DNA of 64,000 nucleotides from Gemmatimonadales bacterium (GTDB lineage: Bacteria > Gemmatimonadota > Gemmatimonadetes > Gemmatimonadales > GWC2-71-9). The DNA lies in contig DATJVM010000034.1 in NCBI GenBank assembly GCA_035501775.1, positions 44,651-108,650 on the forward strand, written 5' to 3'. The notes beneath the pieces were generated by a model. That model worked only from the letters and a program-made list of their open reading frames with translations. It searched no databases and had not been told where the DNA came from. Of the stretch, positions 3,006 to 42,007 are shown piece by piece (within the stretch, counting starts at the first letter, position 1; the number at the start of each line of letters is the position of its first letter). The position numbers were made by a program, and so were the translations under genes.

Positions 3006-3080
3006 CCATTAGCTTTGATCCTCGAGCATTGCCGTAAACCGTTCCCAACCTGGCTGAGACGGAAAGGGGCCTCGCTGCAC

Positions 3081-14238: not shown

Positions 14239-14250
14239 TCGGAGGCAGCC

Positions 14251-15462: not shown

Positions 15463-15465
15463 AGC

Positions 15466-16755: not shown

Positions 16756-16834
16756 GCTAACCCTCCTCCTGCCCGCCGCGGAGCGGGGGTGCCATCTGTG
16801 GGCGGCGCCTGACGGAGAGTGCAAGCAGCATTTG

Positions 16835-18520: not shown

Positions 18521-20075
18521 ACTCCTCGTGCGACGAGACCCACTCCAATGATGAGATCGCGGCCGCCAGCGAGATCTCGCCGGCGAGCACCACCCCGGCG
18601 ACGATCTCGGCGAACTTGTTGACCTTGCCCTTCCCTACGCAGCCGAGGATCTCGAGGCATTCCCGCTGGGTGGGGAGGTGCGTGCCGCCGCCGTGGGTGG
18701 CGACGATCAGCGATGGGATCGTTATCGACAGGTACAGGTCCTTTTCAGGTGTCAGCTCGGCGTAGGAGATGCCCGCCGATCCTTCGGCCACGTTGGCCAC
18801 GTCCTGTCCGGTCGCGATGAACATGGCCGTGATGGCGTTCGGCGAATGGGCGCCATTGTTGTTCGCGCCGGAGAGAATGGCGCCGACGTTGGCCACGCCC
18901 CAGTGGTAGTGGAGGCTCTCCGGCTCTACTCGCATGACGTCGAGCAGCACGTCGCGCTTGATCACGCACTCGGCGGTCACCCGCTTCCCCCGGGTCCGCA
19001 TCAGGTTCACCTGGGACGCCTTCTTGTCAGTGGCCAGGTTGGACTCCAGATAGAATCGCCGGACCGAGGGGTTGTTCTCGAGAATCCAGCTGCACGCCGC
19101 GAAGGTGGCGCGACCCACCATATTTTGCCCCGCGGCATCACCGGTGAAGAAGTTGAACCGGAGATAAGCGAACTTGCTCGCGAGATAGGTGTCGATGTAC
19201 TGTAGCTTCCCCACCCGGGTGGTGGCCTCGGCCTCGCGCTGAACGTCGGCGATGTGCTCGTCCACCCAGTCACGGAAGGCGCGGGCTTCGCGCGCAGAGT
19301 CGAACACGAACACCGGCGCGCGCTGCATGTGATCGGCCTGGATGGTGCAAGTAACCCCACCGGAAAGGTTCAGCACCTTCATGCCCCGGTTGTAGGAGGC
19401 GACCAGAGTGCCCTCGCTGGTGGCCAGGGGGATGACGAATTCCCCCTGCGCATGCTCGCCATTCACCTTGAGCGGACCCGCGAAGCCGATCGGGACCTGG
19501 GCCACGCCGGTGAAGTTCTCGATGTTCCCCTTGGTGAGCTGCGGGTCGAAGGAGTACCGGTTCAGATGCTGGAGCTTCACTCCGCTGAACTGCTCCACGA
19601 ACCGCTGGCGCTCGGCGATGATGGCCGGGGTATAGTTGTCCTCCTTGGAATAGGGGACCGAACGGGGCCGCTGCTGCGGGTGGGCGACATGATCGTTGAC
19701 CTTGAAGGCCAAGGCGCCGATCCCTTTGACCTCGATCGCGATCTCGATCTCCTGGATCCCCTCCGGCAGCGTCCGACCCGGCGCCCGCAGGTGCGCCACC
19801 TTCCGGAGCGGGAACTCCTCGGGGCGCTCGGGGGTGACGTCGCTCGCCGGCCGCCAGCGGCCGTCGCCCATATCGACCTGGAGGTCGCGCGACGAAATTT
19901 CCAAGGTTCCGAAACGCACCCGGACGATCCGGGTCAGGGTCACGTCGCTCAGGCGGTTCTTCAGGCTGAAGTGCGCGCCATCGGGCGAATTGGTGAGCGA
20001 TCCGAAGGTGTAGAGCTGCCGGAGCAGCAGTTGGGGGATCTTCATGATGGGATTCCGAGAATGAGGTCCATTCAC
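18504..20075 (-). CDS. class I-type HMG-CoA reductase with an extra N-terminal domain of about 130 aa
   Basis: Catalytic motifs EGTLVASYNRG, TGDAAGQNM and VATHGGGTHLPTQ. The first roughly 130 aa lie outside the catalytic core. The start may be at 20045. Confidence 0.85.
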   Translation of the reverse strand: MNGPHSRNPIMKIPQLLLRQLYTFGSLTNSPDGAHFSLKNRLSDVTLTRIVRVRFGTLEISSRDLQVDMGDGRWRPASDVTPERPEEFPLRKVAHLRAPGRTLPEGIQEIEIAIEVKGIGALAFKVNDHVAHPQQRPRSVPYSKEDNYTPAIIAERQRFVEQFSGVKLQHLNRYSFDPQLTKGNIENFTGVAQVPIGFAGPLKVNGEHAQGEFVIPLATSEGTLVASYNRGMKVLNLSGGVTCTIQADHMQRAPVFVFDSAREARAFRDWVDEHIADVQREAEATTRVGKLQYIDTYLASKFAYLRFNFFTGDAAGQNMVGRATFAACSWILENNPSVRRFYLESNLATDKKASQVNLMRTRGKRVTAECVIKRDVLLDVMRVEPESLHYHWGVANVGAILSGANNNGAHSPNAITAMFIATGQDVANVAEGSAGISYAELTPEKDLYLSITIPSLIVATHGGGTHLPTQRECLEILGCVGKGKVNKFAEIVAGVVLAGEISLAAAISSLEWVSSHEEYGRNR

Positions 20076-20112
20076 TAATGTGGCACGCCGCCCGACCCAC
20101 CGCCAATCGGTC

Positions 20113-20931
20113 TCAAGCGCGGCCGCCGGCTCCGAGCCCGCGGACGAGAGCGGCCATCTCCAGCGGCCGCTCGGTGGGCACGGCGTGGCCCGTCTTCGGG
20201 TAGATGACCAGCTTCGATCGCCGCAGGCGGCGGTGCATCGCCTTGGACCAGCGGGGTTTCAAGACCCGGTCCGCACCGCCCGCCGCGATGACGCTCGTGA
20301 CGGTGATCTCGTCCAGGCGCTCGAGGAGTGAGGGGCGGGAGGCGACGGCGTGCAGGGCCTGGATCAGCGCGCGATCCTCCATGGCGCGCACGCTGCTCTC
20401 CCACCGCGCCACCGCGGCCGGATCGGCCTTGCGAAAGGACGGGCTGAAGGTGCTCCGCGCCGCCTCCCGTGCCAAGTACCGGGCCTGGCCCGTGAGCTGG
20501 ATGATGCGGGCCAGCGCGCGGATCTCGAGCGCGCGGAGCAGTTCTTCCGCCGCGGCGCTGGTGCCGACGAGCGCCAGGGCCTCGAGGCGCTTCGGGAAGT
20601 GGATGGCCAGATCGATCGCCGCCATCCCGCCCATGCTGAAGCCCAGCAGCGTTACCCGCTCGATCTCGAGATGATCCAGCAGGGCAACGAGGTCCAGGGC
20701 GAGGTCGCCGATCTCCCACTGGGTGGCCGGGACCGTGGTCCGCCCATGGCCCCGGAGGTCGGGCACGAGTACCCGGTGGTCCCGCGCCAGCTCGGTGGCG
20801 AGGCGGGCAAACATCCCGCCGTCACACCACATCCCATGGGCCAGCAGGACCGGAGGCCCGGCGCCGCGCTCCTCGAGATGCACCACGAGGTCGCGGAGCG
20901 GAATAGCGTGCTCGGTGGCGGATGACGTCAC
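20113..20931 (-). CDS. alpha/beta-fold hydrolase
   Basis: HGMWCDG oxyanion region and nucleophile elbow GFSMGG; 4-nt overlap with coxG. Confidence 0.8.
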   Translation of the reverse strand: MTSSATEHAIPLRDLVVHLEERGAGPPVLLAHGMWCDGGMFARLATELARDHRVLVPDLRGHGRTTVPATQWEIGDLALDLVALLDHLEIERVTLLGFSMGGMAAIDLAIHFPKRLEALALVGTSAAAEELLRALEIRALARIIQLTGQARYLAREAARSTFSPSFRKADPAAVARWESSVRAMEDRALIQALHAVASRPSLLERLDEITVTSVIAAGGADRVLKPRWSKAMHRRLRRSKLVIYPKTGHAVPTERPLEMAALVRGLGAGGRA

Positions 20932-21461: not shown

Positions 21462-22186
21462 TCCGTTTGATCCTCGAGGGCGAGGAGGTCCGCCCGGGTG
21501 TCCACGTCCGGGTTGGCGCCCGGCACGTCGATCAGGTCAACGGCGTCCGGTCGCGCGCGCAATGCCGCCCCGAGGCCCTGGTCACCGATCAGATTCTCGG
21601 CCAGCGCCCACAAGGCGCCATCGAGAAGCACGGGGTGCCCTGGCTCGTCCGGGCGACTCGCGTACCGGGGGCGGACGCTTCGTCCCGTGCGGCGCCACGC
21701 GCCCACCAGGCGGGAGATCGTAGCGCCAGAGAGGAGTGGTTGATCGGCCAGCACCACGAGCGCGGCACGAGGGCGGTCAGGCGCCGCCATCACCGCGAGC
21801 TCGCGGAGGCCCACGCGAAGAGACGAGGCCAACCCCGTGTCCGCCTCCGGGTTCACCACGACGCGGAGCCCGGCCGTGGCGAGGTGCCAGCCGAGCGCGG
21901 TGTCGCGAGGCGGCACCACGGCCACGCCGCCCTGGAGCGTGCCGGAGGCGATAGCTTGGCCCACGGCGACCGCCACGTGCGCGATCAGCGGGCGTCCTCG
22001 CCACGGGGCGACCAGCTTGGCGCCGCCGAAGCGGACGCTGGCACCCGCGGCGAGAACCAGCGCATGCGCGTCGCCGCCCGGCGCCGGGCTCCGGTCAGCT
22101 GCCGGCTCGCTCGTAAGCCTGCGAGACCGCCCGGATGGCGGCCACCCTCGCGAGGTGCCGACGGTATTCCCCGGGGGCATGCACAT
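21458..22186 (-). CDS. mocA: MobA/MocA-like molybdenum-cofactor nucleotidyltransferase
   Basis: LVLAAGASVRFGGAKL NTP-transferase motif. The start is uncertain: the longest ORF overlaps coxM by 92 nt, and no ATG/GTG lies close to the motif. Confidence 0.7.
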   Translation of the reverse strand: MCMPPGNTVGTSRGWPPSGRSRRLTSEPAADRSPAPGGDAHALVLAAGASVRFGGAKLVAPWRGRPLIAHVAVAVGQAIASGTLQGGVAVVPPRDTALGWHLATAGLRVVVNPEADTGLASSLRVGLRELAVMAAPDRPRAALVVLADQPLLSGATISRLVGAWRRTGRSVRPRYASRPDEPGHPVLLDGALWALAENLIGDQGLGAALRARPDAVDLIDVPGANPDVDTRADLLALEDQTE

Positions 22187-22955
22187 CGCCCGCGATCTCG
22201 AGATCTTGCACCGCTTCCCGCGCCGCCTTCTCCAGCGCGGCGGAGTCGCACTTGGTCCCGTTCACCTGCTCGAAGGTTGTGCCGAGGAAGGCCTTCTCGC
22301 CGATGCCGGTGTAGGCCACGGTGATCTCCGAGATGGTCGCGCGCTTCCGCCCGACGACCGCGCAGACCCCCACCAGGGCATAGCCCGAGGCAGCCTGATC
22401 GAAGCTCACGTACGCGGCGTGATTGCGGCCCATTGGTCCGAGCAGGATGTCGGTGAACAGTTCTTCGTCCGTCATGGCGGTGGAGAAGGCGCCCTGGAAA
22501 AAGTCGCGGGCCTTGACCGTCCGCCGGCCGCCCTTCTTCGACCGCAGCTGAAACTCGGCGTCGAGCGCGACCATCACGGCGGGCATATCGCTGGCGGGAT
22601 CCGCGTGGGCCAGCGAGCCGCCGATGGTGCCGCGGTTCCGCACCTGGATGTCGGCGATGGTGGAAGCCACCTCCGCCACGATGGGGCAACGCTCCCGGAG
22701 CACCGGGCTCGTGGCCAGGTCGGCATAGGTCGTCGCCGCCCCGATTCGCGCTCCCTTCTTGAACTCCTGCACGCCTTTGAGCTCGTCGATGCGCGAGATG
22801 TCGACCAGCTTGGGCACCTGGACCAGGCGGAAGCGCATCATCGGGAGCAGGCTGTGGCCTCCGGCGATGACCTTGGAGCCGTCTCCGGCGGCGAGCAGGT
22901 TCAAGGCCTCCTTGACCGACCCGGCGCGAACGTAATCGAAGCTGGTCGGGATCAT
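22095..22955 (-). CDS. coxM: Mo-hydroxylase FAD-binding medium subunit (CoxM-like)
   Basis: FAD-binding VIAGGHSLLPMMRFR; 286 aa; ATGA overlap with coxL. Confidence 0.9.
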   Translation of the reverse strand: MIPTSFDYVRAGSVKEALNLLAAGDGSKVIAGGHSLLPMMRFRLVQVPKLVDISRIDELKGVQEFKKGARIGAATTYADLATSPVLRERCPIVAEVASTIADIQVRNRGTIGGSLAHADPASDMPAVMVALDAEFQLRSKKGGRRTVKARDFFQGAFSTAMTDEELFTDILLGPMGRNHAAYVSFDQAASGYALVGVCAVVGRKRATISEITVAYTGIGEKAFLGTTFEQVNGTKCDSAALEKAAREAVQDLEIAGDVHAPGEYRRHLARVAAIRAVSQAYERAGS

Positions 22956-25306
22956 GACTTACCTCCCTTCGCCTTCTGGATGGCGGCCCAGACGCGCGCG
23001 GCGGTGAGCGGCTTGTCGATATGGGTGATCCCGAAGGGTTGCAGGGCATCCACCACCGCGTTCACGAGGCAGGCCGCCGAGGCGATGGTGCCCGCCTCGC
23101 CGCAGCCCTTGATGCCGAGCGGGTTGACCGGCGAGGGCGTGACGGTGTGCGCCACTTCGAGCTTCGGCATCTGGCTCGCCTTGGGCACCGCGTAATCCAT
23201 CATGGTGCCGGTGAGGAGCTGGGCCTCCTCGTCGTAGACGGCGATCTCCTGCAGCCCTTCCCCGAGGCCCTGGATGACCCCGCCGTGGATCTGGCCGTCG
23301 ACGATCATGGGGTTGATCGGCGGGCCGCAGTCGTCAACGCAGATGTAGCGGAGGATCTTCACGGCGCCGGTATCGGCGTCCACCTCGACCGTGCAGATGT
23401 GGGTCCCGAAGGGGTAGACGAAGTTGCTTGGATCGAAGAAGGCGCTGGCCTCGAGGCCAGGCTCGAGGCCCGGCGGCATGTTCCACGCGACGTTGGCCAT
23501 GAGCGCCACCTCGGCGAAGGTCTTCGCCTTGGAGGGCGTGCCCCTGACCTGGAACTTGCCGTCCTTCCACTCGAGGTCGGCCTCGTTGGCTTCGAGCAGG
23601 TGGGCGGCGAGCTTCTTGGCCTTCTCCCGGACTTTGATCGCGGCGACCTTGACCGCCGACCCGCAGACCGCCGTACTGCGACTGCCGTAGGTGCCCCAGC
23701 CCTGGGGTGTGTTGTCGGTGTCGCCGTGGATGATCTCGACGTTCTCTATCGGGTAGCCGAACTCATCCGCCACGATCTGCGCGAACGTGGTTTCCTCGCC
23801 CTGGCCGTGGGGCGAAGCGCCGATGTAGACCTTGACCACGCCGGTCGGGTAGACCCGGACCAGGGCGGAGTCGTACAGGCCTCCGCCAAAGCCGACGGCG
23901 CCGGCAACCTGGGATGGACCGAGACCGCAGATCTCGATGTAGCTCACCACTCCGACGCCGAGGTACCGTCCTTCCTTGCGGGCCTTGGCCTGCTCCGCGC
24001 GGAAGGCCTTGTAATCGAGGATTCCGACGGCCTTGTCGAGGGCCGCTTCGTAGTTGCCCGAATCGTAGATCAGCCCGGTGGCGACGGTGTAGGGGAACTT
24101 GTCCTTGGGGATGAAGTTCTTCCGCCGTACCTCGACCGGGTCCATTCCGATCTTTCGCGCGTAGATATCGACCAGGCGCTCGACAAGATAGGCGGCCTCC
24201 GGGCGTCCTGCCCCGCGATAGGCGTCGACCGGAGCGCCGTTGGTGTAGACCCCGTTGATCACGCCGTGGATGTTGGGGATGGTGTAGGCCCCCGAATACA
24301 CCAGTCCGTGCAGGATCGTGGGAATCCCCGGCGCCGCGGTGGAGGCATAGGCGCCGAGTCCGGCATAGACCTTGGTGCGGAGGCCGGTGATCCGGCCATC
24401 CTTGGTGCCGCACATCTCCACGTACTCGATGTGATCGCGGCCGTGAATGGTGACCTTGTAGTTCTCCGAGCGGTCCTCGGTCCACTTCACGGGCCGGCCC
24501 AGGTCGATCGACGCAAAGGCGGTGAGGGCCTCATCGGCGTAGGCGGGAATCTTGGAGCCGAACCCGCCACCCACCTCCGGCGCGATGACCCGGACCCGGT
24601 GCTCCGGCAGCTTGAGCATGACGGAGCAGAGGAAGCGGTGGATGTGCGGATTCTGGCTGGTTGCCCACAGAGTGAGCTGGCCCGAGCCCTTGTTGTAGCT
24701 GGCCACCGCGGCCCGGGGTTCGATCGCCGTGGGGAGCAGGCGCTGCTGGACGATACGCTCCGCGACCTTCACGTCCGCGGACTTGAACGCCGCCTCCGCG
24801 TCTCCACCCGAGACGGTCCAGGTAAAGGCGATGTTGCCGGGCACTTCGGTGTGCAGTTGCGCCGCGCCCTGAGCGGCGGCCTTCTCGGGGTCGGCCGTCG
24901 CGGGGAGCGGATCGTAATCGGCCTCGATCAGGTCGACGGCGTCCCGCGCCTCGGCCCGCGTCTCGGCCACGACCATGGCGACGGCATCACCCACGTACCG
25001 GACCTTGTCAACGGCCAGAAGCGGGTGTGGCGGCACCTTGAGATCGCAGCCCGGGACGTTCCAGGCACAGGGCACCGGGACGAGCCGGTCGGCCAGGTCC
25101 TTGCCGGTGTAGATCGCCACCACGCCGGGGGCGTTTCGGGCCGCCTTGGTGTCGACCGACTTGAGCCGGGCATGGGCGTACGGGCTGCGGACGAACATCG
25201 CGTAGACCAGTCCGGGGAGCTTCACGTCGTCGGTATACGTCGCGGAGCCCGTGATGAGGCGGGGATCCTCGCGCCGCTTGATGCCTGAGCCAAATAGCGT
25301 GGTCAT
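22952..25306 (-). CDS. coxL: Mo-hydroxylase large subunit, form II CoxL-like (AYRGAGR)
   Basis: ATG at 25306 ([20 protein letters not shown]), 785 aa. The active-site loop reads [12 protein letters not shown], which is the form-II signature, not the form-I AYXCSFR. Confidence 0.9.
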
Positions 25307-25317
25307 GGGCCTTCCCC

Positions 25318-25812
25318 TCAGACGGCGGCGCCGGTCTTCCCGGCGCGCATGGTCGCCGCCGCTGCCTGGATGGCCGCGACGATATTCTGGTACCCGGTGC
25401 AGCGGCAGAGATTGCCCTCGATCGCGTCGCGAATCTCCGCCTCGGTCGGATCGGGATGTCGTGACAGGAAGTCCGCCGCCGTCATGATCATGCCGGGCGT
25501 GCAGAACCCGCACTGGAGCCCGTGCTTTTCCCAGAACGCGGTCTGCAGCGGGTGGTGCTGACCATCTCCGCTCGCCATCCCTTCGATGGTGGTGATGCTC
25601 GAGCCCTCGGCCTGCACCGCCAGGACCGTGCAGCTTTTTACGGCGCGGCCGTCGAGGTGTACGGTGCAGGCCCCGCACTGACTGGTGTCGCAGCCGACAT
25701 GCGTGCCCGTCAGGTTGAGCTCATCCCGTAGTACGTGCACCAGAAGCGCGCGCGGCTCGACCTCGACCAGGTGCCTGTTTCCATTAATCTGGAGTGTGAC
25801 GGAGCGTTTCAT
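25318..25812 (-). CDS. coxS: Mo-hydroxylase [2Fe-2S] small subunit (CoxS-like)
   Basis: Cys clusters [18 protein letters not shown] and CRCTGY; ATG at 25812. Confidence 0.9.
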
Positions 25813-25909
25813 GCGAGCTTCCTCGACGATGCGGAGGGGGCGCCGGAGCGCGGGAACACGAGGCGCCAGGGTGAGGGGGGCCCGGGCGCCCTTTCTGTCC
25901 GGGCGGGTT

Positions 25910-25938
25910 AGGGTACTGCTCACCCGGAACCCGGTCAA
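25910..25938 (-). promoter_or_regulatory. candidate promoter of the cox operon
   Basis: On the minus strand: TTGACC (25938-25933), a 17-nt spacer, then TACCCT (25915-25910), about 95 nt upstream of the coxS ATG. Confidence 0.3.
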
Positions 25939-25951
25939 GACGGCGGCGGGC

Positions 25952-25980
25952 TTGACCCGATCCGTCGTGCCCGGTACAAT
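25952..25980 (+). promoter_or_regulatory. near-consensus sigma70-like promoter with no downstream protein gene
   Basis: TTGACC (25952-25957), a 17-nt spacer, then TACAAT (25975-25980), in a locally AT-rich patch. It is back-to-back with the cox promoter candidate. Confidence 0.5.
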
Positions 25981-25986
25981 ATTCAC

Positions 25987-28656: not shown

Positions 28657-29811
28657 TTGCGTATGCGAATCGCGATCTTCTCCGAGGTTTACTGGCCGAT
28701 GGTGAGCGGCGTTGGAGTGACCCTCCGCCGCCTGACCCAGGAGCTCGCCGCGCGCGGACACGAGGTCCGCGTCTACACGGCGAGCTACCCGCTTCCGCCG
28801 GGGGTCGATGACTGCCTGGAGGTCCACCGCTCGCCGAGCATCCCGCTCTTCCTTTATCCGGACGTGCAATGGGCCTTCCCCAGGCAGCGGGAGATCACCG
28901 CTGACCTGGCGTTCTTCCGGCCGGATGTGGTGCACGTGGCCACCGAGTTCGCGCTGGGACTGGCGGGGGTGAAGGCGGCGGAGCAGCTCGGTGTGCCGAT
29001 CATCGCGTCGGCCCACACCGACTATCAGAAGTACGCGCAGCGCTACGGGGTGGGCTTCGTGTTGCAGATGGGCTGGATATACTTGCGCTGGTTCTACAAC
29101 CACGCCGAGCGCGTGCTGGTTCCCTCCCGAGTGTACGAGCACTACCTGAACAGCCGCGGGGTGAGTCACACCGGCCTCTGGACTCGAGGGGTGGATCCGG
29201 AGGAGTTCAATCCCGGATTCCGGAGCGAGGGCTTTCGCGCCAGGTTCGGTCTTAAGCCCGGCGATCTGCTGGTGTCCTACGTGGGCCGGCTGGCGCGCGA
29301 GAAGGACCTCGACCGTCTGGTAGAGGCTTGGCAGCGGCTTCGTGCGCGGCGAGGCAATGCCAAGCTAGTGCTCGTGGGTCGGGGCCCGATGGAGGAGGAT
29401 CTCCGCGAGCGGGCTGTGCCCGGGATTCACCTCACAGGCCTGCTCACCGGCCGCGAGCTCGCCGAGGCGTACGCCAGCACTGACCTGTTCGTGTTTCCCT
29501 CGTCCACGGAAACGTTCGGCAACTCACTGCTCGAGGCGATGGCCTCCGGGGCCTGTTCGCTTGGCGTCGCCGCCGGAGGCGTGCAGGAGTTCGCGGAGCA
29601 CGGCCGGAACGCGTGGCTGGTGGGACCCAACGATACGGAAGCGCTGCAAGGCGCGCTCGAGAAGCTGATGGCGGACGGCTCCCTGCGAGCCCGTCTGTCG
29701 AGGGGTGGCCTCCAGACGGCCGAGTCGCGCCAGTGGGGCCGGATCTACGATCAACTGCTCCAGGACTACGCCGCGACCGCGGCGTCAAAAGGTCGGGTCC
29801 AGGCCGCCTAG
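28657..29811 (+). CDS. GT4-family (GT-B) glycosyltransferase
   Basis: C-terminal motif FVFPSSTETFGNSLLEAMASG (E-x7-E); 384 aa. Confidence 0.85.
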   Translation: MRMRIAIFSEVYWPMVSGVGVTLRRLTQELAARGHEVRVYTASYPLPPGVDDCLEVHRSPSIPLFLYPDVQWAFPRQREITADLAFFRPDVVHVATEFALGLAGVKAAEQLGVPIIASAHTDYQKYAQRYGVGFVLQMGWIYLRWFYNHAERVLVPSRVYEHYLNSRGVSHTGLWTRGVDPEEFNPGFRSEGFRARFGLKPGDLLVSYVGRLAREKDLDRLVEAWQRLRARRGNAKLVLVGRGPMEEDLRERAVPGIHLTGLLTGRELAEAYASTDLFVFPSSTETFGNSLLEAMASGACSLGVAAGGVQEFAEHGRNAWLVGPNDTEALQGALEKLMADGSLRARLSRGGLQTAESRQWGRIYDQLLQDYAATAASKGRVQAA

Positions 29812-30473
29812 GGGCGCGGCCCGTCCCGCTCGAAGAGAAGACCCTCCAGCTCGGCGGCGCTCTCGAACCAGAAGTCCGGAGCGCCGGCTTCCAGGTCGCT
29901 CCGCGCGAAGGGCCCCCACAGCGCGGCCCCGGTGAGAACACCCGCTTTCCTCCCGCTCGCGAGATCGTGCACGCTGTCGCCCACGAAGAGAGTGCTGATC
30001 GGCTCGCTGGCGAGCGCCGTGACGGCCCGCTGAACCGGCTCCGGGTGGGGCTTGGGGTGCTCGACGTCATCGGCGCAGACCAGTACCTCGATGGCGTCCT
30101 CCAATCCGATCAGCCGAAGCCCTCGACGGGTTCCTTCTCGGTTCTTGCTGGTCACGACTCCGGTACGGAGCCCCCGCCCGCGGATACCGCGAACCAGATC
30201 GACTACACCCGGAAACGCCGCCACCATCCGGTCGTGGTTGGCCAGGTTGAAATCCCGGTAGGTGGCCACCAGCGCCTGCAGCTCCTCCGGCGAATCCGCC
30301 CAGGGCGCGAGCTGCACCCGGAGCGGGGTGCCGACGCCTCGCATCCATTCGCTATCGGGAACCGGTGCCCGGCCGTGCGCTGCCAGCGTATGCCGGTAAC
30401 TGGCCAGGATGAGTTCGATGGAGTCGATCAGGGTTCCATCGAGATCGAAGAGAACGGTGCGGATGGCAGACAT
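29808..30473 (-). CDS. HAD-superfamily hydrolase (phosphoglycolate-phosphatase-like)
   Basis: Motif I VLFDLDGTLIDS and motif IV FVGDSVHDLASGRKAG. The start overlaps the helicase 3' end by 46 nt. Confidence 0.85.
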   Translation of the reverse strand: MSAIRTVLFDLDGTLIDSIELILASYRHTLAAHGRAPVPDSEWMRGVGTPLRVQLAPWADSPEELQALVATYRDFNLANHDRMVAAFPGVVDLVRGIRGRGLRTGVVTSKNREGTRRGLRLIGLEDAIEVLVCADDVEHPKPHPEPVQRAVTALASEPISTLFVGDSVHDLASGRKAGVLTGAALWGPFARSDLEAGAPDFWFESAAELEGLLFERDGPRP

Positions 30474-32662
30474 CGGGGTAAGCTACTCACCCGCACAACC
30501 CCGGTGACGCGAGGGCGAAAGAGGGCCTGGCCCCTTGGCACCGTAAGGAGCGTTCTCAGGCCAGATGCCAAATCGTTCGTGGGCGTGTGGAGCAGGCGAC
30601 CGACGAGGTGTGCCTCCCCGGCCGTAAGGCCGCCACAGAGCCAGGCGAGCGACTGGTCGATCAGCGAAAGCAGCCGGCCGTCCCGGCGGCAGGCCGCCAG
30701 GCGGGCCAGGCGCCGGAGCCGGGCAACGAGTAGTCGCTGATCGTGCTCCAGGTGGCCGCTCCAGCGTTCAGTATTGGCGAGCCGGAGCTCCTCGCGCGCG
30801 ATGCCGGCGGCCAGGTCCAGGGCCGCATGGTGCTCCTCCGGCGCCGGCGCGCGGCCCCGGCTTTCGCGAGCCGTCTCGAGAATCGGGACCACCTTTTTCG
30901 GATCCTCGGTCCGGCATCCTTCGTTGTCCACCCAGAAGATGCGACCCGGCTCCGGGCGAGCCTCCGGTGTTGGGCCCAGGAGATCGAGCGCCAGGCCGAT
31001 CAGCCAACCCTCCTCTTCCCCCTTGACCACGGTCATGCCCGGGATCCCCGGGCAGGGACGGGCCCACACGGCCATGTCTGACCTCCAGCGATAGAGCCAG
31101 CGGCTCCGCTGGTCGAGCCCGGCATGAAGCAGCAGCTCCCGCTTGATGCCGAGGGACTCGAGCTGGTGCAGGCGTCTTTCGAGTTCCGACGCCGCGGAGA
31201 ACTCGATGACCTCGATGGACTCATGAAGGGAACCCAGCCGCGCCGCGCGCCCGACGCGCTGGTCGAGACGGACGGCGGTCCAGGGGAGGTCGTAGTGGAC
31301 GACCCGACTCACTCGTTGCAGGTCGAGCCCCTCGGCGGCGACGTCGGTGGCGAGCAGGAGCGCAGGCGGGGTACCGCACCGGGGCATGGCGCCGGGCCGA
31401 AACCAGTCGAGCACGGCGTCACGACCGAGCCGGCTCCGGCCGATCCCTGCGGCGTCGCCGGTCACCCACGCGGGCCCATGTCTCGAGAGCCGCGCCCGGA
31501 GCCAGGTGAGGGTGTCTCGAAAGCCGGTGAAGACGAGGGTTGGCGTTCCGTCCCCGATCAGGTCAGCGAGAAGTCGGCACTTTCCGTCGGCCTCTGGCGC
31601 AGCTCGCCGCGCCTTGTCGAGGACGCTGCGGAGACGGGACGCATCGTCCAGTGCGAGGTCGACCGGTTCGTCTGGAATCGGTGCCAGTCCCCAAAGCACG
31701 AGCTGCTCGGGATCTCTGCCCACAAAGGAGCGGATGGCGGCGCGGGTGGGCGATTGCCCCGCCTCTCTGGCCGCGTCCGCATGGTCCAGGAGGCGGGCGT
31801 AGCGCTCGAGCACGCCAAGCAGCGCGCCCGGACTCGAGGCGCAGGCACGCCAGAAGACACTCCGGATGAGGCCAGCCACCGTCGGATCGCGAGAGAGTCT
31901 GAGGCGATCCAACAGCTCCAGGAGTTCATGGCATTGTGGGTCGAGCGAGACGGGCATCGCGCGGCTCCTCACCGCCGGGGCTCCGGCGGGCAGCGGGCGA
32001 CAGATCACCAGGTCGCCCAGGGCGGATGGCGCGGAGCGGGCGCGCAGGGCTTCGAGCAGGCTGGGGCAGCCCCGGCCGGAGAGGGCGTCGTCGCGGACGG
32101 CAAGGAGAAGCTGGTGGGCCAGGTCGCTCAGCTGATTGACGACGGGCGTGGCCGAGAGGAGCAGCACCCGTCGACCGTGCAGCCACGGTGCCAGGGCGCG
32201 ATATCGTCTCGTGGCCGGATTGCGGAAGCGATGACTCTCGTCCACGATCACCAGCCTGCGGTCGGAGGCGGGCAGGTGCCCGCGACTCACCGCCTCGTGC
32301 GACAGGAGGGCCAGCGGGAGAGCGACTCGGTTCGCCGCGTGCCGCCATTGTGAGGCGAGCGCCGCCGGCACGATGGCGACGGTGGGCGCTCCGAGCGCCA
32401 TGGCGGCAGCGAGGGCAATGTAGGTCTTGCCGCTTCCGACCGGATCCGCCAGGACCACGCCGCGATGAATCTCGAGGGCGGCCAAGGCCCGACGAAACGA
32501 CCCTCGCTGCTCCCCGCGGAGCCATGGAGGAGGCGTGTAGCTCGCCTCCGGCGGGGCCACGGACGCCGCCAGCGTCTCCGCGACCTCGCGAGCGGCATCG
32601 GTCGGCGCCACCGAGAGCACGGTCGCGAGCGGGTCGTGGACCTCACTCAGGGCTTCCGCCAC
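30428..32662 (-). CDS. SNF2/SF2-family helicase-like ATPase with an uncharacterised C-terminal region of about 260 aa
   Basis: Motif I LADPVGSGKTYIA, II VIVDESHRFRN, III LLLSATPVVNQ, VI QRVGRAARLGS. GTG at 32662 is the most plausible start, giving a 20-nt overlap with the methyltransferase gene. The track ORF extends to 33019. Confidence 0.8.
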   Translation of the reverse strand: MAEALSEVHDPLATVLSVAPTDAAREVAETLAASVAPPEASYTPPPWLRGEQRGSFRRALAALEIHRGVVLADPVGSGKTYIALAAAMALGAPTVAIVPAALASQWRHAANRVALPLALLSHEAVSRGHLPASDRRLVIVDESHRFRNPATRRYRALAPWLHGRRVLLLSATPVVNQLSDLAHQLLLAVRDDALSGRGCPSLLEALRARSAPSALGDLVICRPLPAGAPAVRSRAMPVSLDPQCHELLELLDRLRLSRDPTVAGLIRSVFWRACASSPGALLGVLERYARLLDHADAAREAGQSPTRAAIRSFVGRDPEQLVLWGLAPIPDEPVDLALDDASRLRSVLDKARRAAPEADGKCRLLADLIGDGTPTLVFTGFRDTLTWLRARLSRHGPAWVTGDAAGIGRSRLGRDAVLDWFRPGAMPRCGTPPALLLATDVAAEGLDLQRVSRVVHYDLPWTAVRLDQRVGRAARLGSLHESIEVIEFSAASELERRLHQLESLGIKRELLLHAGLDQRSRWLYRWRSDMAVWARPCPGIPGMTVVKGEEEGWLIGLALDLLGPTPEARPEPGRIFWVDNEGCRTEDPKKVVPILETARESRGRAPAPEEHHAALDLAAGIAREELRLANTERWSGHLEHDQRLLVARLRRLARLAACRRDGRLLSLIDQSLAWLCGGLTAGEAHLVGRLLHTPTNDLASGLRTLLTVPRGQALFRPRVTGVVRVSSLPRCLPSAPFSSISMEP

Positions 32663-35600
32663 GATCCGCGGAATCGGCCCCCACGAAGCGGGCGAGCAGG
32701 GAGCGCTCCTCCGCCGAAAGCTGGAGGTGCTGGGCGGTGATGGCATCGAGTTCCTTTGCGACTTGCTCGCCTCGGCCAGCCCGGTCGGCGAGGCGCGCCA
32801 GGCGCTGATCGGAAAGCACGGCGGTGGGCAGCGGGAGGCTAGCAACGACGCGGGCATTGAAGCGGGCGAATCCGCCGGAAGCGATATCCGCCGCGGCTCG
32901 GGCCAGTGCCCGGACCCAGGTGCAGTTGAGCCATGCGGAGAGGGTGAGCGCCGTGAGCCGATCCGGCACCGGAAGGACGTAGCAGGTATTGAGAGCCACC
33001 AGCCGGGAGCCCTCGGCATCCACCAGCGCCGCCGCCGTGAGCTGGCGGGCGATATCCGCCCAGATCACCCGGTTCTCGCCTTGGGCATGAGTGACCCGAA
33101 ACAGCGTCCAGAGGGGGCCACCCTGATAGTCCACTCGCGCCGACAGCATCGCCTCGTGCTGCGTCACGTATGCCGCCGCGCCTCGTGGCAGGGTCTGATA
33201 GGGCCCGCCGTTCGCATCATGCGGGAAGAAGAGCCGTGCCCCCGGATGCGCGGAGAATGGCCGGATGTCACGCCCTCTTACGGCCTGGCGCACCAGGGCC
33301 GGCTCAACTGACGGAGGCGGGTCGAGGAAGAGCGCGTTGGCCCCGGTCTTCACTCCCAACCGCGGCGTGAAGCGCTCACCGAGGCTCGGATGGTCGCCGC
33401 GGGCGCGTGCGAGTGCATCGAGGAGGGCGGGCGCCGCCAGCGTCCAGGCCTGGCCACCGACGACGTGCCGTTGCGGACAGCAGTGCCGCTCCATGGAATC
33501 GAGGGTGAGGCGGACGGTGTGGTCAGGGGACGGGGCCCGCCGGGCCGCGACGACCGCCGCGGGATAGGTCGTGGCATCGAACGGGGCACTCCGATCCTCG
33601 GTCAGGTCGGCCAGGACGTGCAGGGTGAACTCCCGGGCCAGGCCGGCCCGCATGGCACGGGCGTAGCCCGCCGTGGTGACCTTGAGGGGAAGGAGGAGCG
33701 CCAGAACCCCGCCGGGCGACAGCAGCTCGGCGCCTCGTTCCACAAATGCGACCGCGAGATCCGGCTGATGGGAGAAGCCGCGGCCGCCGGTCCGCCACCA
33801 GCGGTAGCGGCGGGAGAGGAGTTCGCGCATCGAGGGGCGGAGCTGCTCGGCGCGCACCCAGGGCGGGTTGCCGACGACGAGATCGAAGCCACCGCGGGCC
33901 AGCACGTCGGCCGCGTGCGCCTCATAGCAGAACCAGGTGATCTCTCCGTCGTGGCGGAGTCGCCGCTCGAGACGCCGGACCTCCTTCATGCCTCTCCGCA
34001 GCTGGTTCATGCGCTGCCGGAGGCCGCGGTCGAGGCTGCGCCGCTCGCCAAACAGGTCCGTCGCCCTCGCCACCCGCAGGCACTCGGCCATTTCGGCTTC
34101 GAGCTGTCGGCCTGCCTGATGGAGACATTCCTTGAACGCAGCGGTCTCGGCGCGGCGCAGCTGGCGGCCAAGCTCGCGCTTGTCCGAGCCCGTGGCCTGA
34201 ACGAAGGCTTTGCGCAGGCCGTGCATCGGAGGGCCGTGCGATGGGGAACGGAGCCCATGGCCGGCAAGGGTCCAGGTCGGGTCGAGAAGGCTGTCACCCT
34301 GACGCACCACACCGTCGAGATTGGGCAGAGGTGCCACGGCTTCCGGATCGGTCACCGCTTCCGCGGCGATGATCGCGAGCCAGAGCCGGAGCTCGGCGAG
34401 ACGCACCGCCATCGGGTTCAGGTCTACGCCGAAGAGGTTCTGTTCGAGAATGCGTCGGCGGAGGAGGGCGGGTGGTGCCTCACCGCGGCGGAGGACCGCC
34501 AGGCGTTCCAGGGCGCCGAGCAGAAAGGCGCCGGAGCCCACCGCCGGATCGAGCACCGCAATTCCGCGCAGTACCCGGCGGACGGCGCGGTCCGGTGCCG
34601 TGAGGCGCTCACGCGCCTCCTCCCGCGTGAGCCCGAGGCGTGATGCGATCAGGCTCTCGAGCCCCGCGTCCACCAGACGCTCCACGAGACGGCTCGGAGT
34701 GTAGAAGCTGCCGCTCTTCTGGCGGTCCTCGGGCGCCATGATTCCCTCGAACACCCGGCCCAGCATGTCGGGCGCGATGCGCGAGGGGTCGGCGCTTTCG
34801 ACGGCGGTGAAATGGAAGCGCTCGAACATCTGGTCGAAGGCATCCCGCCAGCAGCGGTTGGGGACATCGCCCCGCCACGATCGCTCCAGCAGATGCGGCT
34901 CGAAGAGCCCTCCGTTGAGAAACGGGATCCGACCGAACGCCTTGGCCCGTCCCCGCTGGTCCGGAGGTCGGTTGAGGGTGCCGAAGAAGAGGGGGCGGAA
35001 GAGGTCGCGGTGCAGATGGCGGCGCCTGGCGAGGGTGTCGTCGACGGCCTGCCTCAGGAAGTCGTGCCGACCGTCGAGCCAGCCCTTGGCGGCGACAAAG
35101 TACAGAAACAGGACCCGCGTGAGTTGAATGAGGGCCAGCGGTCGCCGGTCCCGCTCACGGAGGGAGCCGGACAGCCCGGCGGCCATGAGGTCGAGGGCGC
35201 GCCGAAACTGCCGGAAGAATCGTCGCCCGACGTCGCTCCCTTCGAGCACGGCGCTGGCTCGGAGGGCGAACGCCAGACCGGAAAGAGGCGGCAGAAGGAG
35301 GAGTCGCCGCAGGCGCTCCCGGTCCCCCGGATCGGGGCGATCCAGATCCAGAGAGAGGGTGGCGCTCTGGTCCGCGGTGACCGCGATGGCGAGGCGACGA
35401 GCGCCTGGGTCGAGTGCCATGACGCCCACCAGCCGGCCCCGCTCGGCGAAGGCCTCTGACAGTCTGGCGGCGACCTCGGCCGGCTCCCTCGTCAACACTC
35501 CAAGCCACTCGAAATTCTCCGTGCCGCCCAGCAGTACCGCGGCCTCTGCAGCGACGGGCAGGGCGCCGGGTCCCAATTCCCGGGGTCGGTAGTGCTGGCC

Positions 35601-35669
35601 CAGCGCCTGCACGATGGCGGCCAGATCGGGCAGGGCCCGGATCCCTCCGAGCAGGGTGGCGATATCCAT
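32643..35669 (-). CDS. large N6-adenine DNA methyltransferase, Eco57I/type IIG/PglX-like, with a TaqI-like C-terminal specificity region
   Basis: FLNGGLFE, GSFYTP, motif I AVLDPAVGSGAFLLGA, motif IV DLVVGNPPWV, and C-terminal GVKTGANALF. ATG at 35669 (MDIATLLGG) gives 1008 aa. Confidence 0.85.
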   Translation of the reverse strand: MDIATLLGGIRALPDLAAIVQALGQHYRPRELGPGALPVAAEAAVLLGGTENFEWLGVLTREPAEVAARLSEAFAERGRLVGVMALDPGARRLAIAVTADQSATLSLDLDRPDPGDRERLRRLLLLPPLSGLAFALRASAVLEGSDVGRRFFRQFRRALDLMAAGLSGSLRERDRRPLALIQLTRVLFLYFVAAKGWLDGRHDFLRQAVDDTLARRRHLHRDLFRPLFFGTLNRPPDQRGRAKAFGRIPFLNGGLFEPHLLERSWRGDVPNRCWRDAFDQMFERFHFTAVESADPSRIAPDMLGRVFEGIMAPEDRQKSGSFYTPSRLVERLVDAGLESLIASRLGLTREEARERLTAPDRAVRRVLRGIAVLDPAVGSGAFLLGALERLAVLRRGEAPPALLRRRILEQNLFGVDLNPMAVRLAELRLWLAIIAAEAVTDPEAVAPLPNLDGVVRQGDSLLDPTWTLAGHGLRSPSHGPPMHGLRKAFVQATGSDKRELGRQLRRAETAAFKECLHQAGRQLEAEMAECLRVARATDLFGERRSLDRGLRQRMNQLRRGMKEVRRLERRLRHDGEITWFCYEAHAADVLARGGFDLVVGNPPWVRAEQLRPSMRELLSRRYRWWRTGGRGFSHQPDLAVAFVERGAELLSPGGVLALLLPLKVTTAGYARAMRAGLAREFTLHVLADLTEDRSAPFDATTYPAAVVAARRAPSPDHTVRLTLDSMERHCCPQRHVVGGQAWTLAAPALLDALARARGDHPSLGERFTPRLGVKTGANALFLDPPPSVEPALVRQAVRGRDIRPFSAHPGARLFFPHDANGGPYQTLPRGAAAYVTQHEAMLSARVDYQGGPLWTLFRVTHAQGENRVIWADIARQLTAAALVDAEGSRLVALNTCYVLPVPDRLTALTLSAWLNCTWVRALARAAADIASGGFARFNARVVASLPLPTAVLSDQRLARLADRAGRGEQVAKELDAITAQHLQLSAEERSLLARFVGADSADRGGSPE

Positions 35670-35803
35670 GGCGTACCCGGTTGGCGGGGGTCCACGGTAG
35701 GGCCACGGCCGGTATAACTTGGTAGCAGTCTTGCGGTCGCCCGGCGCCAAATAACCCGCTGGCGGTCGGAGGGCGACGTTCGCGGACTTTCATTGGAGCG
35801 AGT

Positions 35804-40431: not shown

Positions 40432-40947
40432 TCAGCGGATCCTTACGACTTGCTGCAGCTCGGTCTCGATCTGGTCGAGCTGCTTCTCGATGTCATGGTC
40501 ATCGAGCGCGCTGTCAGGGGCCGGGACGCCGTTCTGCGTGAACAACGTCGCGACCAGCGCGTCGGTGTAGCCGACCACCGCGACGGCGATGCCCTTGTCG
40601 AGGGTGGCGCTCAGGCGGAGAATGATGGCCATCGCCTGGCGCTGACGGAGGCCGGTGAGAACCGGGCCGATCCGGCGGATGAGAAGCTCGCGCAGGTACT
40701 GGATCTCCTCGACGATCTCTCCGGCGGCGAGGCCGCGCGCCGCGCCGAAGCGGCCGTAGTGTTCCGCGGCGTGATGCCAGACCTCCGCGACCGACCGGCG
40801 CAAGGGCCCCACGCTTTCGGTGAGGATGTCGTACAGCAGGCGAAGTTCACGCTCCAGCGTGCCGGGCGGCCTCGAGGTCGCCGTCGAAACCCTACCGGCC
40901 AGCCAGCCCGCCCATTCCTTCACCACGGCATCGCGATGGTCAGCCAT
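40432..40947 (-). CDS. hypothetical helical protein (RsbR-N-like sensor-type fold suspected)
   Basis: ATG at 40947 (MADHRDAVVKEWAGWL...). Helical with a coiled-coil C-terminus. The family assignment is weak. Confidence 0.45.
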   Translation of the reverse strand: MADHRDAVVKEWAGWLAGRVSTATSRPPGTLERELRLLYDILTESVGPLRRSVAEVWHHAAEHYGRFGAARGLAAGEIVEEIQYLRELLIRRIGPVLTGLRQRQAMAIILRLSATLDKGIAVAVVGYTDALVATLFTQNGVPAPDSALDDHDIEKQLDQIETELQQVVRIR

Positions 40948-41041
40948 CGCTCGGCCGACGGTCAGCAACGTGGGATGCGATGCGCGCAATGAGGCTCCGG
41001 GGGGTGAAAACGACGCGGGGCAATCTACATGGAGGGGTGTA

Positions 41042-42007
41042 ATGGGGTCAAAGACGGTCATACGGCCTCCCCGGCTCCGCGCCGGCAGTCGCGTCGCTCT
41101 GCTCGCGCCGTCCGGGCCGCTCAGCGAGCGGGACGACCTGACGCGGGCGCTGGAGCTGTGCCGCGCCTTCCAGTTCGAGCCCATCGCGGGGACGCACGCG
41201 CTGGAACGGCACGGCTATCTGGCGGGCGAGGACGACGCCCGGCTCGCCGATCTCAACCAGGCTCTGAACGATCCGTCCGTCGACGCCATCTGGTGCCTTC
41301 GGGGCGGCTACGGCGTAACGCGCATCCTCGATCGCGTCGAGACCGAGGGTTTTGTGAGGCGGCCCAAGGTGGTGATCGGCTTTTCCGATGTGACCGCCTT
41401 GCTCCTCGCACTGCACGAGAGCGCTGGCGTGGTGACCTACCACGGCCCGATGAGCCGCTCCCCGCTCTCGCTGTTCAGCCGGCGCCACTTCGAGCTGGTG
41501 CTCACCCGGGTGGGAGCTCCGGGGCTCATGGGAAACCCGCCAACGCCGTCGGGCGTCACCGTGCCGCGGGCGCCGAGGATCGTTGCACTCCATCCGGGTG
41601 TCGCAGAGGGCCCACTGGTCGGCGGGAACCTCACGCTTCTCATGGCCCTGGCGGGGACGCGGCACTTTCCGGACCTCACCGGGGCACTGCTGTTTCTCGA
41701 AGACGTGGGGGAAGACCTGTATCGCATCGACCGCCACCTGGCGCACCTCCGTATGCTGGGCGCGCTCGATCGGCTGGCTGGCGTCATCGCGGGGCAGTTC
41801 ACCGAGATGCGGCGCGGCACGGGAGACGGCGGCGCCTTGGCGCTGGACGAGGTGCTCGGCACCTATCTCACACCGTTAGGCATCCCGGTGGCGATGGGAT
41901 TCCCCATCGGGCATATCGAAGACCAGTGGACCCTGCCGATCGGTGTCAGGGCCAGGCTGGACGCGGGAGCCGGCGAGGTGGAGATTCTCGACGAGTGCAC
42001 CATCTAG
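41042..42007 (+). CDS. ldcA: LD-carboxypeptidase (peptidase S66)
   Basis: RVALLAPSGP, nucleophile context VIGFSDVTALL, C-terminal GFPIGH. Confidence 0.85.
   Translation: MGSKTVIRPPRLRAGSRVALLAPSGPLSERDDLTRALELCRAFQFEPIAGTHALERHGYLAGEDDARLADLNQALNDPSVDAIWCLRGGYGVTRILDRVETEGFVRRPKVVIGFSDVTALLLALHESAGVVTYHGPMSRSPLSLFSRRHFELVLTRVGAPGLMGNPPTPSGVTVPRAPRIVALHPGVAEGPLVGGNLTLLMALAGTRHFPDLTGALLFLEDVGEDLYRIDRHLAHLRMLGALDRLAGVIAGQFTEMRRGTGDGGALALDEVLGTYLTPLGIPVAMGFPIGHIEDQWTLPIGVRARLDAGAGEVEILDECTI

Follow-up and report, generated by a model that had tools for sequence, protein, structure and literature searches.

A predicted DNA methyltransferase-SNF2 ATPase pair without a recognisable nuclease is vertically inherited in Gemmatimonadales

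Methylation-based immune systems, such as restriction-modification (R-M), bacteriophage exclusion (BREX), DISARM (a defence-island system linked to restriction-modification) and BR/MANTIS, are usually mobile, patchily distributed and armed with a nuclease or another effector. BREX has no recognised nuclease, yet it defends. MmeI-type single-chain enzymes act on asymmetric 6-7-bp sites, of which they methylate one strand, and Snf2 ATPases move along duplex DNA, from which they displace proteins without unwinding the duplex. ATPase-dependent loading of a methyltransferase (MTase) is known from MANTIS, in which MtsC cannot bind DNA without the AAA+ protein MtsA (doi 10.64898/2026.09.23.753747). 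Here we describe a two-gene locus, composed of an MTase gene and a SNF2-type ATPase (helicase) gene, in a 64,000-nucleotide stretch of DNA from a Gemmatimonadales bacterium (assembly GCA_035501775.1, contig DATJVM010000034.1, positions 44,651 to 108,650 of the forward strand), hereafter the window. This MTase-SNF2 pair is without a recognisable nuclease, occupies a fixed chromosomal site and has diverged together with its host lineage, a soil order that is abundant and for the most part uncultured; the homologue clusters are in the thousands. The reading that we prefer, and to which we give an even chance, is that the pair is a nuclease-less, vertically fixed descendant of an R-M-like system built from an MTase and a phospholipase D (PLD)-SNF2 protein, and that it now serves the ATPase-assisted methylation of host DNA.

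Homologues of the MTase, about 1000-1010 aa long, form more than 240 listed clusters from metagenome-assembled genomes (MAGs) of Gemmatimonadales and Gemmatimonadota, with 2520 candidates at E ≤ 1e-50 among those scored, and when clustered at 50% identity the helicase family still has at least 150 representatives, each 650-790 aa long and matched over its full length. A scan of the GTDB species representatives with the MTase yielded at least 79 loci, about 70 of them in Gemmatimonadota. The helicase gene lies downstream of the MTase gene in 70/70 of the listed loci having at least 1.5 kb after the MTase, and is directly adjacent in 60 of these 70, so the pairing put forward in the original prediction is kept wherever there is enough sequence. 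The variable genomic setting that it had considered is not what we found: in most loci the pair sits in a conserved syntenic neighbourhood of housekeeping genes, sharing neighbours between the window and contigs whose MTase is only 49-62% identical. Upstream, the conserved genes are orf250, GT2 and hyp216, with or without a PAS kinase; downstream come a HAD phosphatase gene, PhoU/PHO4 in some loci, then GT4, an NAD-binding dehydrogenase and MFS. The identity of the MTase to that of the window follows the identity of its neighbours (Spearman rho 0.83 for HAD, 0.72 for GT2, 0.69 for orf250 and 0.68 for the helicase), a correlation as strong as that of the housekeeping neighbours with one another (0.81), and neighbour-joining (NJ) trees of the MTase and of the helicase recover the same clades. 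The window has about 69% G+C throughout, and the pair resembles the surrounding genome in both G+C content and G+C at third codon positions (GC3). No close relative was detected among 72,556 plasmids (best match about 31% identical, none covering at least 80% of the query), IMG/VR gave two weak matches only, and a plasmid or phage origin was rejected, these homologues of helicase or MTase being distant and at most about 31% identical. The target-recognition domain (TRD) of the MTase displays neither hypervariability nor swapping, its mean pairwise identity (0.52-0.54) being close to that of the catalytic core (0.61-0.63). Taken together, synteny, congruent trees, native composition, lack of mobility and a stable TRD identify a vertically inherited, selected pair and not a defence-island cassette. 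We conclude that the pair is native to the chromosome and vertically inherited in Gemmatimonadales; the conserved neighbourhood and vertical descent tip the balance away from a mobile defence system and towards a domesticated module found lineage-wide.

The open reading frames (ORFs), lengths and motifs of both genes were borne out on re-reading. By its motifs and profile matches, the 1008-aa protein is a predicted gamma-class N6-adenine DNA MTase of Eco57I/MmeI architecture: Pfam returned Eco57I (6e-21), N6_Mtase (4.5e-9) and MmeI_Mtase (2.4e-6), and a PDB profile search returned BseCI, CamA (7lni, 3.2e-9), MmeI, BsaXI and BrxX. The spacer between the N-terminal and catalytic domains resembles that of MmeI, residues 235-429 of which (5hr4) align with aa 231-432 of the MTase; Pfam MmeI_hel and DUF7814 match this region in relatives, and the AlphaFold2 (AF2) model is all-helical over aa 146-300. 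Within the catalytic domain, about 115 residues (aa 471-585) form a helical insert. The TaqI-like C-terminal specificity region of the original prediction stood in part: the GVKTGAN block reads as TaqI_C-like, the PADLOC model MTase_II (PDLC03313) aligned over aa 592-994 and Pfam TaqI_C matches the relatives L076 and L079, but on the window protein itself TaqI_C failed E < 0.01. The 744-aa protein is, on similar grounds, a predicted SNF2-type superfamily 2 (SF2) ATPase, with Pfam matches to Helicase_C (4e-15) and SNF2-rel_dom (1.9e-9, 37.5 bits versus a cut-off of 24.9), a ResIII match limited to the Walker B region, and Sso Rad54-like and RapA in the PDB profile search. The catalytic motifs of the MTase are invariant among 45 homologues, with NPPW in every Gemmatimonadota locus whose frame is intact, and the helicase motifs are invariant or nearly so in 44, indicating that both activities are under selection across diverse homologues. 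In five loci from MAGs named MFD* (L017, L023, L051, L052 and L072), the MTase or helicase frame is interrupted, probably by assembly indels and not because the genes are pseudogenes.

The two regions lacking an assignment, MTase aa 1-300 and helicase aa 480-744, were modelled with AF2 and compared with the PDB by Foldseek, and their conserved residues were scanned. The MTase model, built with 52 homologues, reached a mean predicted local distance difference test score (pLDDT) of 88, above 90 over aa 1-140. Foldseek returned nothing for the N-terminal domain at E ≤ 0.001 (best E 0.05), and the weak top matches were mostly PD-(D/E)xK folds, namely the SPARDA nuclease domain, DrdV, Hjc, RecU/PrfA, TT1808 and DUF820, a modelled resemblance that we take as a hint of ancestry only. 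Residues W55, P112 and G148 are invariant in aa 1-150 among 45 homologues (P112 nearly so in the 52-sequence set) and an acidic residue is kept at D87 in 87% of homologues, whereas the scan revealed no conserved Lys or His in aa 1-150. Aa 1-145 are the fastest-evolving part of the protein (mean pairwise identity 0.40); the family hidden Markov model (HMM) reaches distant relatives only from about position 70-120 onward, and their N-terminal patterns look related by eye, with D...ExK in none. As modelled, the MTase N-terminal domain is therefore without a nuclease active site. In the helicase, only about 55 aa precede the motor core and Walker A begins at aa 76; so short a stretch cannot accommodate a PLD or Tudor domain at the N-terminus. 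Its C-terminal model (pLDDT 81) is a beta-sheet with two long inserted helices, and the best four Foldseek matches were all E. coli RapA (8so8, E 9.5e-4, prob 0.97; 8spg and 8t0l, prob 0.96; 6bog, prob 0.77), the remaining ones having E ≥ 0.6. This topology corresponds to the alpha+beta domain that Rakesh and Krishnan describe at the C-terminus of RapA/BrxHII (PMC12839542). The mean pairwise identity of the region is 0.36-0.40, and nothing but W, G, L and R residues is invariant in it; conserved-residue and motif scans detected no D/E-x-K arrangement, HKD motif or extra restriction endonuclease in the helicase, which thus appears to be without a nuclease domain. The original prediction, which had seen no PD-(D/E)xK, HNH or PLD signature, was right on this point, but its alternative of a cryptic nuclease was not supported: both regions could be modelled at the scores given above, and neither the AF2/Foldseek comparison nor the residue scans found one.

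Both proteins and the larger ORFs of the window were scanned against Pfam, NCBIfam and PADLOC. PADLOC matches were partial and at the level of domains: REase_MTase_IIG (best, 1.6e-31), DrmMI (second) and PglX for the MTase, and DrmD (best), DpdE, PLD-helicase, BrxH and HmaA for the helicase. Every NCBIfam match fell far below its cut-off, with 86.6 bits versus 610 for DrmD (NF038317), 84 versus 1100 for the PLD anti-phage model, 71 versus 500 for DpdE, 30-60 versus 400-900 for the PglX models and 25.3 versus 576 for RapA, in agreement with the claim that the pair fits no named family. DrmA/B/C, PglZ, BrxC and DUF499 were absent from the ORFs of the window, so the lack of partner genes, initially seen in the flanks, extends to the whole 64 kb. 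With such sub-threshold, domain-level matches and no partner genes, DISARM, BREX, BR/Hma/MANTIS, Type III, Type ISP and Type IIG were all rejected as identities of the pair, and we found no published description of it in the literature. Overall, what remains of the original interpretation is the absence of a named family, of partners and of a nuclease signature; what falls is the cryptic nuclease.

The most distant matches of the GTDB scan are cyanobacterial cassettes from Aphanothece hegewaldii (L079) and Anabaena sp. UHCC 0451 (L081). Their MTase (about 1100 aa, Eco57I/TaqI_C, NPPY) is 26-27% identical to the window MTase over about 850 aa, and in their helicase (about 1100 aa) the SNF2 core is joined to an N-terminal PLDc_2 domain whose HAKAYIFD motif is intact, the best PADLOC match of this helicase being 'HKD+Snf2' (candidate C3a139) at 2e-70. 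The genes between MTase and helicase encode an OLD/AriA-like ATPase in L079 and BstA-like and MzaA-like proteins in L081, placing these cassettes in a defence-island context. The L079 MTase and helicase matched no NCBIfam model above cut-off (the L081 proteins were scanned against PADLOC only), and the cyanobacterial cassette may itself be an unnamed R-M-like defence system. A small 'long form' group in Gemmatimonadota (L064, L065:3714-6914, L066:12688-15780, L070 and L078) forms a link between the two; it combines an MTase of about 1105-1158 aa with a helicase of about 1030-1066 aa, which matches the cyanobacterial helicase over 657 aa and that of the window over 576 aa, in each case at 32% identity. 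The 200-230-aa N-terminal extension of the long-form helicase has no Pfam match and no HKD motif, and may be a decayed PLD domain. NJ trees place the long-form and cyanobacterial genes outside the main short-form clade, which fits a progressive loss of the PLD nuclease. The pair thus likely descends from R-M-like systems of the kind 'Type IIG-like MTase + PLD(HKD)-SNF2 helicase', the nuclease having been lost. Since all these relatives have the same type of MTase N-terminal domain, with PD-ExK in none, the nuclease was probably always on the helicase in the wider clade.

Two further observations concern distant relatives. In a MAG labelled Myxococcales, a UPF0102 (YraN-like) ORF lies directly after a short-form helicase (L076:14891-15424); this ORF is of the PD-(D/E)xK family and could reflect coincidental housekeeping synteny or be a separate nuclease partner. 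Distantly related SNF2-type helicases of about 1050-1090 aa are encoded on the small plasmids L165 (Weissella cibaria pNH9449-1) and L166 (Rhodococcus ruber); one of these cassettes comprises a helicase-related gene, DUF4391, an MTase and a DEAD/DEAH helicase, the other just a helicase-related gene and a DNA MTase.

How might such a pair work? We infer that the MTase and the SNF2 protein would form a complex, as their overlapping genes and co-evolution indicate, and that this complex would methylate DNA. The TRD would read a short, probably asymmetric site at which one adenine is methylated, and the SNF2 motor would spend ATP on loading the methylase, or on carrying it along the chromosome or across DNA covered by nucleoid proteins, clearing bound proteins; alternatively, it could read the methylation state and act as a methylation-state-dependent motor. 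No DNA would be cleaved, and vertical fixation favours self-directed methylation, epigenetic or housekeeping, and thus a role other than defence, over classical restriction. We propose only tentatively that the pair constitutes a domesticated, lineage-wide, nuclease-free and remodeller-dependent N6-methyladenine (m6A) system, a bacterial counterpart of DDM1/LSH-type SNF2-assisted methylation with a role in regulation, replication or repair, not immunity. The methylome of Gemmatirosa kalamazoonensis includes the asymmetric m6A motif ATGCAC (PMC3974934), which with respect to the pair is only a lead, no carrier isolate being among the matches listed.

Several observations weigh against the self-methylation that we prefer. 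The polarity of nuclease loss is drawn from rough NJ trees, and the basal short form L076 complicates it. Among metagenome loci with a HAD orthologue and at least 5 kb upstream (most contigs being too short), four of five have the pair and one does not; no RNA run in a sequencing-run search contains the locus region, and no isolate is found among the 240 MTase homologues or the 79 GTDB loci listed. In addition, the peripheral domains, i.e. the MTase N-terminus and the helicase C-terminus, are the fastest-evolving parts, as immune sensor domains are, and the example of BREX shows that a pair without a nuclease may still defend. The main and serious rival, a reading that we consider possible, though somewhat doubtful, is that the pair is an active, nuclease-free anti-phage or anti-plasmid system working in the manner of BREX: the MTase would mark self DNA at asymmetric sites, and the complex would translocate on unmethylated incoming DNA and keep it from being replicated or transcribed, e.g. 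through polymerase displacement, or would recruit a host nuclease. The closest profiles of both proteins are those of defence proteins (for the MTase, Type IIG, DrmMI and PglX; for the helicase, DrmD, DpdE, PLD-helicase and BrxH), defence islands harbour relatives, and the RapA-like C-terminal architecture is common to BREX type-3 BrxHII and BR/Hma helicases (PMC12839542). All these profile scores, however, are far below family cut-offs, and a fixed syntenic position with order-level vertical descent is atypical for defence systems; moreover, the pair has no neighbouring defence or mobile genes, no copies were found on plasmids or viral contigs, and its TRD is neither swapped nor hypervariable.

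The preferred reading, motor-assisted methylation of host DNA, also has to be set against the possibility of a restriction system whose nuclease is cryptic, with non-canonical residues in the MTase N-terminus or helicase C-terminus, or is encoded in trans at an unlinked locus. The mostly PD-(D/E)xK character of the non-significant Foldseek matches, the conservation of D87 and the UPF0102/YraN-like gene after the helicase in the distant locus L076 speak for it; the lack of a conserved Lys or His in MTase aa 1-150, of D/E-x-K in the helicase C-terminus and of any N-terminal match at E ≤ 0.001 speaks against, as does the absence of a conserved nuclease gene beside the pair in the 79 loci listed and in the 64-kb window. 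Since, in addition, the cyanobacterial MTases have the same N-terminal type without PD-ExK and their nuclease is clearly the PLD of the helicase, we judge such a restriction system improbable. Finally, the helicase C-terminus has significant structural matches to RapA alone, and RapA is among the best PDB sequence matches, from which one could imagine that the SNF2 protein is an RNA-polymerase-associated, RapA-like factor and that the MTase acts during transcription, e.g. in co-transcriptional marking. The tandem Tudor pair with which RapA is described (PMC12839542) is nevertheless absent, with about 55 aa before the core, the NCBIfam RapA score is low (25 bits versus 576), and defence helicases commonly have this C-terminal architecture too (PMC12839542), making a transcriptional role highly improbable.

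The coordinates of the locus are collected in Table 1.

Table 1 Features of the MTase-SNF2 locus in the window, and positions of the cyanobacterial cassettes on their own contigs
Feature	Position	Strand	Details
MTase gene	32643..35669	(-)	1008 aa, stop codon included; ATG at 35669, stop at 32643-32645
MTase aa 1-145, alpha/beta N-terminal domain	35235..35669	(-)	AF2 model; order aa-bbb-a-bbb-a
MTase aa 146-300, MmeI-like helical spacer	34770..35234	(-)	alignment and model
FLNGGLF (aa 250-256)	34902-34922	(-)	in MTase helical spacer
MTase aa 301-720, catalytic domain	33510..34769	(-)	invariant motifs
Motif X GSFYTP (aa 320-325)	34695-34712	(-)	in MTase catalytic domain
Motif I DPAVGSGAF (aa 374-382)	34524-34550	(-)	in MTase catalytic domain
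Motif IV NPPW (aa 601-604)	33858-33869	(-)	in MTase catalytic domain
MTase aa 721-1008, C-terminal target-recognition region	32646..33509	(-)	PADLOC alignment, TaqI_C of relatives
GVKTGAN block (aa 772-778)	33336-33356	(-)	in MTase target-recognition region
MTase/helicase gene overlap, 20 nt	32643-32662		
SNF2-type SF2 ATPase (helicase) gene	30428..32662	(-)	744 aa; GTG start at 32662, stop at 30428-30430
Helicase aa 45-480, SNF2 motor core	31223..32530	(-)	motif conservation
Walker A GSGKT (aa 76-80)	32423-32437	(-)	in helicase motor core
DESH (aa 141-144)	32231-32242	(-)	in helicase motor core
SATP (aa 170-173)	32144-32155	(-)	in helicase motor core
Motif VI QRVGRAARLG (aa 468-477)	31232-31261	(-)	in helicase motor core
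Helicase aa 481-744, RapA-like C-terminal region	30431..31222	(-)	AF2 and Foldseek
HAD gene start/helicase 3' end overlap, 46 nt	30428-30473		
PpaX-like HAD-IA phosphatase gene	29808..30473	(-)	Pfam HAD_2 2e-40; ATG 30473
Divergent intergenic region, MTase / signal-peptide protein gene	35670..35803	(.)	134 bp, from sequence; presumed promoter region
Cyanobacterial cassette, Aphanothece hegewaldii	L079:8555-17038		
Cyanobacterial cassette, Anabaena sp. UHCC 0451	L081:9596-19718		

GC3 periodicity favours coding for both minus-strand frames, and the helicase ORF equals the called protein P0121 in length. The overlap of roughly 20 nt between MTase and helicase genes given by the original prediction was exact, and the flanking genes were those that it had named: GT4 and HAD genes border the pair at one end, genes for a hypothetical protein with a signal peptide and for a PAS histidine kinase at the other. 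Scanning for promoters and terminators was uninformative; the sigma-70 consensus gave nothing upstream of the pair, which says little in this phylum. DNA of the locus is present in wetland metagenomes.

The HAD gene starts within the helicase gene in the window, and its N-terminus MSAIRTVLFDLDG agrees with all orthologues, showing that the 46-nt overlap, already reported in the original prediction, is real. The same exact overlap in the diverged loci L001, L004, L009, L023, L026 and L057 suggests translational coupling of this PpaX-like phosphatase (NCBIfam PpaX, 183 bits versus a cut-off of 218) to the pair, with which it is probably co-transcribed. The HAD gene lies within 50 nt after the helicase in 27 of 46 loci. 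As a functional partner it was rejected: PpaX-like, more conserved than either MTase or helicase, and sometimes separated from the pair, it is treated here as a syntenic housekeeping neighbour, and the idea that it clears methylated nucleotides is pure speculation. On the metagenome contig L104, a 45%-identical HAD orthologue (6547-7209) has no MTase or helicase within 6.5 kb upstream, and represents either a lineage without the pair or a HAD paralogue.

The larger ORFs of the window all encode metabolic or housekeeping products, including xanthine dehydrogenase (XDH) subunits, MFS, a dehydrogenase, GT4, GT2, the PAS kinase, Nramp, FtsX permeases, NAD synthase, HMG-CoA reductase and WS/DGAT, and the six genes flanking the pair have no PADLOC match. 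Elsewhere in the window, a lipid/isoprenoid-type cluster (14239-20258) comprises a patatin, a WS/DGAT wax-ester synthase, an ABC1 kinase and HMG-CoA reductase, and the xanthine-dehydrogenase-family subunits (FAD, Mo, 2Fe-2S) lie about 19 kb from their XdhC maturation factor; beyond the lipid cluster, these items span 1863-3008 and 22095-25986. A conserved hypothetical gene at 40432-41184 (-), 4.7 kb upstream of the MTase, has no Pfam, NCBIfam or PADLOC match, and its true start is probably MADHRD..., giving about 172 aa; in L013, L015, L024, L047, L051 and L069, a gene of this type is directly upstream of the MTase in the same orientation.

If the pair carries out motor-aided self-methylation, it would represent a clear case of domestication, from defence to epigenetics, and would offer a simple two-protein model for ATPase-coupled DNA methylation, a mechanism that has only now been reported, for MANTIS. 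Should the pair still serve defence, it would represent exclusion in a minimal form that needs no nuclease, and could help to explain BREX-like arrest of phages without DNA cutting.

Compared with the R-M enzymes, the pair's MTase is closest in layout to the Type IIG/IIL proteins MmeI, Eco57I and DrdV, with which it is colinear: an N-terminal alpha/beta domain, a helical spacer, a gamma-class NPPW MTase domain and a C-terminal TRD. It differs in that its N-terminus is without the PD-(D/E)xK catalytic residues, in its obligatory SNF2 partner gene, which Type IIG enzymes do not need, and in being vertically inherited and not mobile. Type ISP enzymes (LlaGI/LlaBIII) unite an Mrr-like nuclease, an SF2 helicase, an MTase and a TRD in a single chain, whereas the pair consists of two genes, with no Mrr or other nuclease. 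Type III systems require a beta-class Mod and a Res with a C-terminal PD-ExK; by contrast, the MTase of the pair is gamma-class and Eco57I-type, and the C-terminus of its helicase is RapA-like, with no catalytic residues.

Class 1 DISARM likewise combines an Eco57I-type adenine MTase (DrmMI) with a SNF2-like helicase (DrmD), but drmA (helicase), drmB (DUF1998) and drmC (PLD) are not in the 64-kb window, nor are they among the Pfam-marked called genes of three related contigs, and the pair has the order MTase then helicase. BREX (types 1-6) is set apart by its PglZ phosphatase and BrxC/PglY ATPase, both missing from the window, and by sub-threshold PglX scores. The BR/Hma/MANTIS systems (Gao_RL) also couple an N6-adenine MTase to a Swi2/Snf2 helicase with a RapA-like C-terminal part (PMC12839542). 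However, their DUF499 ATPase (ORC/Cdc6-type AAA+) was not found in the window or in three related contigs, and the pair is without DUF3780; the BR MTase is of the DUF1156 type and not of the Eco57I/MmeI type, and the helicase of the pair is without the nucleases seen there, a C-terminal PD-ExK in BR type 1 and an N-terminal HKD in BR type 2/MtsD. The cyanobacterial cassettes share homologues of both genes, the gene order and the type of MTase N-terminal domain, and differ by an intact PLD on the helicase, NPPY instead of NPPW, inserted genes and a defence-island context.

Outside immunity, the orphan MTases Dam, CcrM and C. difficile CamA are derived from R-M systems, vertically conserved in their lineages and active on self DNA. 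The pair too shows vertical conservation and no nuclease, self-methylation being predicted only, but orphan MTases act alone, whereas here a SNF2 gene is strictly co-inherited and overlapping. This SNF2 protein has the SF2 motifs I, II (DExH), III and VI and the Snf2-type profile match of a Snf2-family ATPase. E. coli RapA (HepA) has the same succession of a SNF2 motor core and this C-terminal fold (Foldseek prob 0.77-0.97), although the helicase of the pair lacks the N-terminal tandem Tudor-like domains, resembles RapA weakly in sequence and is coupled to a DNA MTase. In conclusion, the parts of the pair are familiar; what is unfamiliar is its nuclease-free two-gene form and its order-wide vertical conservation.

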